64,000 nt of DNA from an uncultured Hormoscilla sp. GTDB lineage: Bacteria > Cyanobacteriota > Cyanobacteriia > Cyanobacteriales > Desertifilaceae. The stretch spans positions 1,280,001 to 1,344,000 of the forward strand of contig OZ001293.3 in NCBI GenBank assembly GCA_963921275.4, given 5' to 3'. The translations under genes were made by a program, and so were the position numbers. Within the stretch, counting starts at the first letter, position 1, and each line of letters begins with the position of its first letter. Positions 45,884 to 47,625 of this stretch are shown here, one piece after another. Below the pieces are notes generated by a model. The model was not told the DNA's origin and ran no database searches. It saw nothing but the letters and a program-made list of their open reading frames with translations.

Positions 45884-47625
45884 GTGCGATTCGTTCTAGC
45901 CTAACGTGGTCAAACACGGAACGCTAGCCCGGTTTCATTAGCCGGGAACTCTGACCGCATGGGGGTTAAATTCCCCTCCCCCCAGGTACGGGGGTGACAC
46001 CGGTCCTCGGTGCTACGAAGCGACATCATCGTGGTGCTAAGCGAGGACTCAAATGTAGGATAACTGGCAGCCTAAGCCGGTGACGCCGCTAGGAAAGATA
46101 TCCAAGGTTAGAGCAGGCAAACATGTGCAAGCCTCGTTATAAGGAACCAGCGAAATAAGGCTATATGCGCTGGCCTAAAAAGGAAATGGTAGCTAGTATT
46201 AGTTTTAGACTCTGGCTAATATAGTACTCAAATAGCTCCCGGGGTATAGTGTGGACCTAAAGGTATCGCGAAATGTTGTTAGGGAACGAAGTAACCTCTC
46301 GTGTGCTGTCCATCAGGACAAGTTAGATGTTAAGCGCAAGCCACGGGGGGAGGGATGGCCCAAGAAGCGAATGCCCGGGGTAATTCCTGGGATAACATCT
46401 ACAGTAATGTAGATGATGCTGGGTAGCCAGCGCTGACGTGGGTCGGTGATACTAGGAAGCTGCTGGAATGAGTAATCCTAAAAAGCCACGGAACTAATCC
46501 AAAACGCAAGTGGAGGATAAGGTATGGATAACTGGTAAAACTGACTTGAAAATGGTGATACTAACGGTTATCAGAACAACCACTCGCTAAACCAGGAAAG
46601 GGAAGAAAAGACAGGCGGCAAGGGCTAACGGAAGTAATTCCTATTAAGTCTGTGCGATTCGTTCTAGCCTAACGTGGTCAAACACGGAACGCTAGCCCGG
46701 TTTCATTAGCCGGGAACTCTGACCGCATGGGGGTTAAATTCCCCTCCCCCCAGGTACGGGGGTGACACCGGTCCTCGGTGCTACGAAGCGACATCATCGT
46801 GGTGCTAAGCGAGGACTCAAATGTAGGATAACTGGCAGCCTAAGCCGGTGACGCCGCTAGGAAAGATATCCAAGGTTAGAGCAGGCAAACATGTGCAAGC
46901 CTCGTTATAAGGAACCAGCGAAATAAGGCTATATGCGCTGGCCTAAAAAGGAAATGGTAGCTAGTATTAGTTTTAGACTCTGGCTAATATAGTACTCAAA
47001 TAGCTCCCGGGGTATAGTGTGGACCTAAAGGTATCGCGAAATGTTGTTAGGGAACGAAGTAACCTCTCGTGTGCTGTCCATCAGGACAAGTTAGATGTTA
47101 AGCGCAAGCCACGGGGGGAGGGATGGCCCAAGAAGCGAATGCCCGGGGTAATTCCTGGGATAACATCTACAGTAATGTAGATGATGCTGGGTAGCCAGCG
47201 CTGACGTGGGTCGGTGATACTAGGAAGCTGCTGGAATGAGTAATCCTAAAAAGCCACGGAACTAATCCGAAACGCAAGTGGAGGATAAGGTATGGATAAC
47301 TGGTAAAACTGACTTGAAAATGGTGATACTAACGGTTATCAGAACAACCACTCGCTAAACCAGGAAAGGGAAGAAAAGACAGGCGGCAAGGGCTAACGGA
47401 AGTAATTCCTATTAAGTCTACCTATGAAAAGGGCCTAGTACCCAGTAGCCGGATGCGGTGAAAATCGCAAGTCCGGTTCCTCAAGGGAGGGTCGGGAAGC
47501 GATTCCCGGCTCGACCCCATCCACCTATGAAAAGGGCCTAGTACCCAGTAGCCGGATGCGGTGAAAATCGCAAGTCCGGTTCCTCAAGGGAGGGTCGGGA
47601 AGCGATTCCCGGCTCGACCCCATCC
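45884..47625 (+). mobile_element. Outer ORF-less group II intron (45884-46651 joined to 47523-47625)
   Basis: 768 + 103 nt reconstitute the 871-nt unit; one SNP (46501 A vs 47269 G) relative to the inner copy. Confidence 0.92.
46652..47522 (+). mobile_element. Inner ORF-less group II intron, complete 871-nt copy
   Basis: GTGCG start at 46652, DV at about 47446-47479, DVI, ends CCCCATCC. Confidence 0.95.

Follow-up and report, generated by a model that had tools for sequence, protein, structure and literature searches.

Has a group II intron without an open reading frame (ORF) inserted into a copy of itself? This question is raised by positions 45884-47625 of a 64,000-nucleotide (nt) stretch of contig OZ001293.3 from an uncultured Hormoscilla sp. 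(the window, to which all coordinates refer unless another locus is named). Read directly and by script, these 1742 nt consist of two copies of one 871-nt element, starting with GTGCGA and ending with CCCCATCC. One complete copy is inserted between nt 768 and 769 of the other, the two parts of which (768 and 103 nt) add up to 871 nt. We consider the tract most likely to be a homotypic twintron, in which an ORF-less group II intron has entered domain IV (DIV) of its own copy through a site paired with its exon-binding site 1 (EBS1). The parts of the nested locus and a third copy in the window are the following.

45884..46651, + strand: outer intron nt 1-768, with the GTGCGA 5′ end, domains I-III and DIV as far as the insertion point
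46652..47522, + strand: inner intron, complete, 871 nt, ORF-less; its sequence is the majority of the three copies
47523..47625, + strand: outer intron nt 769-871, with the small DIV hairpin, the 3′ strand of the DIV closing helix, domain V (DV) and domain VI (DVI)
36478..37348, - strand: third complete copy, intergenic; its flanks end in GGAGTTT and begin with ACCTGCAG

The inner and outer copies were identical at 870/871 positions, the sole difference being nt 618 (G in the inner copy, a private A in the outer copy at window position 46501). The third copy (37348-36478) also had one difference from the inner copy, a private A at nt 176. This position is column 182 of the family alignment and belongs to a G-C pair that is invariant among all five family members. 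Pairwise differences among the three copies thus amounted to 1-2 nt. The boundaries of the insert cannot be shifted by even one base, as the flanking bases differ from the insert's own end bases. A repeat search of the window reported offsets of 768 nt and 103 nt at the nested locus, and with an nhmmer profile of the intron family the 64 kb gave five segments and no more, namely the complete inner and third copies, the outer copy in its 5′ and 3′ parts, and a truncated paralogue. The Rfam model of DV and DVI (RF00029) matched with 44.4 bits each at 47444-47520, 47547-47623 and 36556-36480 (- strand), against a gathering score of 40, the two matches within 45884-47625 being spaced 103 nt apart. 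The intron is called ORF-less because its longest stop-free stretch is 58 codons. The inner intron is complete, and removing it leaves a complete outer intron, as expected of a twintron. An earlier interpretation made from the letters of the window (the sequence-only reading) had proposed an ORF-less group II intron lying between nt 768 and 769 of its own copy and had suggested a DV model as a check. Reading and script confirmed the arrangement, and the three RF00029 matches, all above the gathering score, support the assignment to group II.

The features used to establish the fold are given here, together with the paralogue (P) from the same window.

47537-47543, + strand: 3′ strand of the DIV closing helix, outer copy
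47550-47581, + strand: DV, outer copy
47447..47478, + strand: DV, inner copy
47617, + strand: bulged A of DVI, outer copy (nt 863, 8 nt from the intron end)
17050..17736, - strand: paralogue P, 69% identical, 3′-truncated and without DV/DVI by Rfam; EBS1 loop GTAGCT, 5′ flank ACCTAC

A consensus of domains I (DI) to III was calculated with RNAalifold for five family members, namely the window intron, paralogue P, and introns A, B and C of locus L003 (Hormoscilla sp. GUM202). Of its 138 pairs, 63 are backed by compensatory changes. The consensus includes a covarying helix that closes DI (nt 7-12 with 402-407), the IA and IB hairpins and a long ID stack. In the alignment, the DIV closing helix (nt 567-573 with 783-789) covaried between the window intron (UACUAGG/CCUAGUA), intron A (UGGUAAG/CUUACCA) and intron C (AGUGUUA/UAACACU). 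For the 3′ region, the last ~150 nt of eight family members were aligned and scored against a structure that we specified. In this alignment 94.2% of the cells were paired and 12/33 pairs showed a compensatory change. None of 500 shuffles reached the observed values, and slid controls dropped to 28-60% paired. The pairs of DV and DVI were conserved in the eight relatives, with six compensatory pairs in DVI. A minimum-free-energy fold of the single sequence, pairing nt 91-100 with 462-471, was discarded as unsupported by the relatives and replaced with local hairpins. The intron appears to be IIB-like.

The proposed recognition of the insertion sites depends on the following elements, the targets being intron-binding sites 1 (IBS1).

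46207..46212, + strand: EBS1 AGACTC, outer copy, in the 9-nt loop of a DI hairpin
46975..46980, + strand: EBS1 AGACTC, inner copy, in the 9-nt loop of a DI hairpin
45878..45883, + strand: IBS1 GAGTCT of the host site, pairing 6/6 with EBS1; the 3′ exon begins with A at 47626
46646..46651, + strand: IBS1 AAGTCT of the self site, with five contiguous pairs and A.C at -6; position +1 is A (47523)
46909..46912 (inner copy) and 46141-46144 (outer copy), + strand: candidate EBS2 AAGG (nt 258-261), in a single-stranded DI junction

The EBS1 hairpin has 8 base pairs, five of which (5/8) show a compensatory change, and a 9-nt loop at nt 322-330. EBS1 corresponds to loop positions 3-8, that is nt 324-329 of each copy. 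The loop reads TTAGACTCT in the window intron, CTGTAGCTT in P, GTCACCCTT in A, CTTGCTGAT in B and TTCTATTGT in C. EBS1 of the window intron pairs 6/6 with the host site, 5/6 with the self site and 6/6 with the flank of the third copy (GAGTTT). With their own flanks, P, A and B each form 5/6 pairs and C forms 6/6. Hence all seven cognate sites score 5-6 of 6, across five introns with five different loop sequences, whereas the 28 non-cognate combinations of intron and site averaged 2.2 of 6, a single one reaching the maximum of 5. Covariation of the stem together with the joint variation of loop and flank identifies the AGACTC loop as EBS1. The sequence-only reading had chosen the same loop, at the same positions and with the same three flanks (GAGTCT, AAGTCT and GAGTTT), and had named a fold in which this loop is not EBS1 as an argument against itself; the consensus fold retains the loop. 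Pairing with the three local flanks is just as good for a second 6-mer, GGACTC at nt 162, but this one is part of a helix, and it is kept in the relatives (GGACTC in P; GGACTT in A, B and C) despite their differing flanks, so it was rejected as EBS1.

The candidate EBS2, or its homologous 4-mer in the relatives, formed 4/4 pairs with positions -13 to -10 at three of the seven cognate sites (third copy, A and B) and in none of the 28 non-cognate combinations. At the self site it would add at most three pairs. A directly follows the self site and the intron's two further insertion sites as well; it occupies +1 at all seven family sites. At three of these seven the 3′ side begins with ACCT: the self site (47523-47526), the third copy (36477-36474, - strand) and intron C (L003:18-15, - strand). 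The shared ACCT may reflect protein contacts or chance.

A GNRA hairpin (747-758) and a small hairpin (770-782) flank a 10-nt unpaired linker, UAUUAAGUCU, and the insertion point (768/769) is at the 3′ end of this linker. Downstream of this point, 14 nt precede the 3′ strand of the helix that closes DIV, and 27 nt precede DV. The insertion had previously been described as just upstream of DV, in DIV, and it can now be placed in a single-stranded linker of that domain. DIV is the domain that normally holds large insertions or the ORF of group II introns. With the site inside DIV, the outer intron might be able to fold around the inner copy, which would then be carried as an insert of that domain. 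The self site is also 4 nt upstream of an ATG that is conserved in six of eight relatives, with no second ATG within 18 nt upstream. Each of the other two complete copies carries its own self site, both of them empty.

47414..47420, + strand: self site AAGTCT/A of the inner copy, empty (cut between 47419 and 47420)
36581/36580, - strand: self site of the third copy, empty

The host of the outer intron is represented by two exons.

45539..45883, + strand: exon 1 remnant, MVP-shoulder/SPFH-like, with homology at 45578-45880 and a frameshift near 45851-45857
47626..48127, + strand: exon 2, in which A at 47626 completes the Leu codon CT/A, followed by 166 codons and a stop

Neither exon matched any Pfam or NCBIfam family, and the family was assigned solely through homologues. 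Exon 2 (166 aa) was searched against 1.84 billion representative proteins (E<=0.001), which gave 253 matches. The full-length ones were ~550-620 aa long and matched over their C-terminal ~145 residues; P0003, P0005 and P0006 carry MVP_shoulder, Band_7/SPFH and Vault-repeat domains. When 45884-47625 was excised in silico, the homologues aligned in a single frame across 45883/47626 (VIQSISQVS/LEQFLAEF in the window, IIQSVSKVTLETFLNQF in P0002 and IIQAVSQVTLERFLADF in P0003). Both outer boundaries, including the ...AUCC end, are therefore fixed independently of the intron comparison. About 30 nt before the intron the homology changes frame, with ...GDVCSHARS in one frame and VIQSISQVS in another. 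Of ~390 upstream residues, only 45578-45880 is represented, and the N-terminal ~120-180 and a further ~120 internal residues of the homologues had no counterpart anywhere in the window. Sequencing error could account for the frameshift, but not for the lacking gene parts. The host had earlier been called an SPFH gene; the family label was right, but what is present is a truncated and frameshifted MVP-shoulder/SPFH-like remnant. Among short homologues starting near the start of exon 2, none had an intron-derived N-terminus, which is evidence neither way.

We suggest the following history. The 871-nt intron would first have retrohomed into the MVP-shoulder/SPFH-like gene at the 6/6 site, splitting the Leu codon CT/A. 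The resident intron would later have received a second, near-identical copy by retrohoming, at 768/769 in its DIV linker. In this step the target would have been chosen by base pairing of EBS1 AGACUC with the upstream AGUCU, followed by A at +1. An ORF-less intron in a window that encodes no reverse transcriptase would need outside help for splicing and mobility; this would presumably come in trans from an intron-encoded protein, a reverse transcriptase located elsewhere in the genome and driving both steps. The 32 ORFs of the window that were scanned against Pfam contained no reverse transcriptase, maturase or other domain of an intron-encoded protein. The inner copy is probably the younger one, as it has the majority sequence, and a private substitution is seen once in the outer and once in the third copy.

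A transcript of this locus would carry two identical sets of DI-DIII, two of DV/DVI, two 5′ and two 3′ splice sites. If it is able to splice, removal of the inner copy first, direct removal of the outer intron with the inner copy as DIV insert, and two “crossed” products would all be possible chemically. As the host gene survives only as a remnant, nothing forces the twintron to splice, and no selection need enforce any of these products.

Several observations weigh against a self-twintron formed through EBS1 pairing. Two of the three self sites (those of the inner and third copies) are empty, and so are five perfect GAGTCT/A sites in the window, at 7127, 22066, 25742, 31885 and 56892. A match of the AGTCT/A type is expected by chance about once in five stretches of 871 nt (871/4096). 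Pairing of the candidate EBS2 is weak, with 2/4 pairs at the host site and, after a one-position shift of register, 3/4 at the self site. EBS3 was not located, the invariant A at +1 (7/7 sites) giving no covariation. No reverse transcriptase partner was present among the 32 scanned ORFs. Group II introns usually begin with GUGYG and end in AY; the 5′ end here is GUGCG, and the 3′ terminus is ...AUCC (...GACC in relatives) instead of AY, with the Rfam alignment ending 2 nt early. The 3′ end at CC is nevertheless fixed independently by the exon junction and by the nested copy. A check with a DI-side Rfam model, also suggested earlier, succeeded only in part: the DI-DIV model RF01999 remained below threshold (22 bits against a gathering score of 36), and the fold was instead obtained from covariation. 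Finally, this is a near-identical nested repeat, the structure of which is known here from the assembled contig alone.

The empty sites bear directly on how the target is selected. The 7-mer GAGTCTA occurs eight times in the window, against 8.2 expected from composition, and three of these occurrences are the antisense of EBS1 loops. Occupancy was 1/3 for self sites and 0/5 for perfect non-self sites, counts that are too small for a test. The self site AAGTCT/A is a near-cognate of GAGTCT/A, which is apparently preferred. As perfect GAGTCT/A sites in the window are empty, EBS1 pairing is not sufficient for targeting; in this intron family it is necessary but not sufficient for the choice of site. 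Two claims of the sequence-only reading are narrowed by this result. Targeting by EBS1-IBS1 pairing holds at all insertions, but with five perfect sites empty it is not the whole rule. Likewise, every copy does carry a homing site that would allow repeated nesting, as far as sequence is concerned; two of the three are empty, however, and the match is only 5/6.

Related introns provide further information on the use of DIV. A scan of genome contigs with the 32-nt DV sequence gave at least five loci (L001-L005), all in Hormoscilla metagenome-assembled genomes (MAGs) among the matches listed. The introns of these five loci were 65-77% identical to the window intron. L003 holds the three relatives A, B and C, at 65-68% identity. 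Intron A interrupts a coding region 770 nt upstream. Introns B and C form a heterotypic twintron (L003:19-2009, - strand), in which B (926 nt; EBS1 TGCTGA) is inserted after GCAGCA within C, at another DIV position (~nt 680 in window numbering); the DVs of both are degenerate and below the Rfam threshold. A blast match in L003 beginning at nt 768/769 was considered as the same nesting and rejected, as similarity merely starts there and the true nesting is elsewhere in DIV. L004:1-178 (Hormoscilla sp. SP12CHS1) holds the end of a different group II intron, at base 75; it reaches the last position of RF00029, with 50.8 bits, and base 76 aligns with nt 769 of the window intron. This is a foreign insertion at exactly the homologous point, of which only the 3′ junction is visible, the contig beginning within the inner intron. 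In L005:195-480 the last base of an intron adjoins the DI of a relative, at the position matching nt 75 of the window intron. At the Hormoscilla loci, family members are thus commonly invaded by other introns. A blastn search of a plasmid collection with the window intron gave no match. Within the window, paralogue P interrupts the C-terminal tail of a broken Ser/Thr kinase gene at 17736. This gene (within 17050-18749, - strand) is itself split into two ORFs, 18749-18426 corresponding to Pkinase profile positions 3-85 and 18386-17685 to positions 102-253.

Since the window intron uses the DIV site itself and an unrelated intron occupies the homologous position in L004, the linker before the small hairpin could be a conserved “landing pad” of this ORF-less lineage, a safe, self-renewing harbour in which every new copy supplies another empty site, so that nesting is open-ended, and whose occupancy goes beyond EBS pairing. 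We put this forward tentatively and regard it as rather doubtful. The same reserve attaches to the additional driver that it would call for, possible examples being an interaction of the trans-acting protein with DIV, or reverse splicing with intron RNA as the target.

Another explanation is an origin of the nested copy at the RNA level, in which an excised intron would have reverse-spliced into the DIV linker of an intron RNA and the product, after copying into complementary DNA, would have recombined into the genomic copy. The self-site IBS1 lies in an unpaired 10-nt RNA linker, intron RNA is the molecule likeliest to be near the ribonucleoprotein, and such an origin would explain why a 5/6 self site was used while five perfect DNA sites are empty. 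On the other side, the bacterial group II introns that have been studied move mainly via DNA targets. ORF-less introns of Thermosynechococcus elongatus, moreover, entered plasmid DNA targets in the mobility assays described by Mohr 2010 (PMC2882425). We consider an RNA-level origin improbable.

An assembly artefact, with a single 871-nt copy at the locus through which the assembler threaded a second repeat copy, seems slightly less probable again. Three near-identical repeats differing by 1-2 nt are of the type that assemblers mishandle, and contigs of the related Hormoscilla MAGs break exactly at such introns: at four of the five listed loci (L001, L002, L004 and L005) the intron is at a contig end. 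Yet the extra copy runs from GTGCGA to the last base of the intron and stands after a 5-nt EBS1 match and before an A, and a mis-join would have no reason to respect intron ends or target rules. Two novel junctions would also require supporting reads, and the copies differ at nt 618. Nesting elsewhere followed by movement of the composite 1742-nt twintron into the host gene via the outer EBS1 is about as improbable as the artefact: composite-intron retromobility is named by Mohr 2010 (PMC2882425) as a possible route of twintron spread and the host site is a perfect 6/6 for the outer EBS1, but the private substitution of the outer copy and the majority sequence of the inner one fit an older outer and a younger inner intron, and the two further full copies of the window occur singly.

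Other features of the window lie outside the intron family. A sulfotransferase gene is located at 44415-45308 (+ strand; PF00685, E=2.4e-52 on a 218-aa ORF) and has an in-frame stop near 44640. Together with the kinase and the MVP-like remnant this makes three broken genes, which suggests relaxed selection or sequencing errors. A DDE transposase ORF at 59033-59854 (+ strand; PF13612/PF01609) represents another mobile element. The HIP1 octamer GCGATCGC occurs 43 times, against ~1 expected from composition, an excess that, like the Hormoscilla origin of the nearest intron relatives, is indicative of a cyanobacterium. Direct repeats at 14012-14295 and 15035-15317 comprise two families of 132 and 147 nt (95-98% identical, offset ~1022 nt); the ORFs 13964-14284 and 14954-15199 have a common protein stretch, which suggests partial duplication of a small gene. 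The direct repeat of 107 nt at 1949-2055 and 2203-2309 is perfect, with a spacing of 254 nt. Two copies of a 79-nt element, 86% identical and containing short palindromes (GGAGGCAGAGCCTCC...), are found at 55930-56008 and 57864-57942; the element looks like a small dispersed repeat flanking an aldo/keto reductase gene.

Twintrons and homing into related introns are an established route by which group II introns multiply without harm to the host. Homing into DIV of related introns is already known from Thermosynechococcus, Methanosarcina and Porphyridium, and self-insertion is known from lycophyte mitochondria. A homotypic ORF-less twintron in Hormoscilla would add the limiting case, with donor and target being the same ORF-less element, so that every insertion recreates its target. 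The picture of group II intron function is left unchanged by this locus. It does offer a natural substrate for asking how the ribozyme chooses its own partner domains, whether an inner DIV intron is removed first, and what limits runaway self-nesting.

In the literature searched, which was incomplete and covered mainly article text, we found no bacterial case of an ORF-less intron lying inside a near-identical copy. Twintrons of different introns were already held to be known in cyanobacteria by the sequence-only reading, and the text of the reports on T. elongatus (PMC2882425) and Trichodesmium (PMC4649490) bears this out. Wolbachia twintrons are mentioned in PMC8919778. One parallel is C.te.I1 of Clostridium tetani, in which, as here, there are several DV/DVI units per transcript, each able to specify a 3′ splice site. 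Its repeats serve alternative splicing to different downstream ORFs, whereas the second DV/DVI in the window is the inner copy's own (as reviewed by Zimmerly & Semper 2015, PMC4424553). In the accounts of Methanosarcina acetivorans given by this review and by Mohr 2010 (PMC2882425), group II introns, including ORF-less ones, have homed repeatedly and site-specifically into others, nesting that the review describes as giving a “perpetual homing site”. That system is archaeal, with up to five introns nested by homing into the ORFs of related introns; in the window there is one level and neither partner has an ORF. The mat1f twintrons of the Porphyridium purpureum plastid, as presented by Perrineau et al. 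2015 (PMC4476101), also arose by homing of an intron into DIV of related introns. They differ from the window case in being plastid-borne, in having an inner intron with an intron-encoded protein and in outer introns that are only 78% identical to each other.

Tery_4732 of Trichodesmium erythraeum (Pfreundt & Hess 2015, PMC4649490) is, like the Hormoscilla locus, a cyanobacterial group II twintron that interrupts a protein-coding frame. Its outer intron, like the window intron, begins with GUGCGAUUC, which in the authors' text is the mark of IIB2. The introns of Tery_4732 are different from each other and contain ORFs, the inner one occupies DI, their sequential splicing was demonstrated, and the host gene is intact (PMC4649490). 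Those in the window are near-identical, lack ORFs and are nested through DIV in the remnant of a gene.

Another cyanobacterial parallel is that of T. elongatus, for which the text of Mohr, Ghanem & Lambowitz 2010 (PMC2882425) describes 28 related IIB1 introns in families defined by EBS, the ORF-less families being mobilised in trans. The TeI3/TeI4 twintrons consist of closely related IIB introns, with insertion at a conserved DIV site; the Hormoscilla locus likewise combines related introns of a cyanobacterium, nested through DIV. One of them has the ORF-less TeI3i inside the ORF-less TeI3h; inner copies are identical and outer ones diverged, and the order of insertion was deduced there by the same argument that we use. 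In that account, family F3 enters other families, and F3 within F3 is unreported in the portions of the paper drawn on here, whereas donor and target in the window differ by 1 nt in 871. The window self site, 4 nt before the ATG, was set against the published description of the T. elongatus DIV site. Self-insertion itself has its counterpart in the mitochondrial intron cox1i1149g2 of Lycopodiaceae, which according to Zumkeller, Gerke & Knoop 2020 (PMC7049729) “jumped into itself” and, like the window intron, has further copies in the genome. As described there, cox1i1149g2 is an old, family-wide “zombie” twintron of a plant organelle, with insertion at position 652 and diverged copies. The Hormoscilla twintron is by comparison bacterial-type and recent, with a difference of 1 nt, and all domains are intact in both of its copies.

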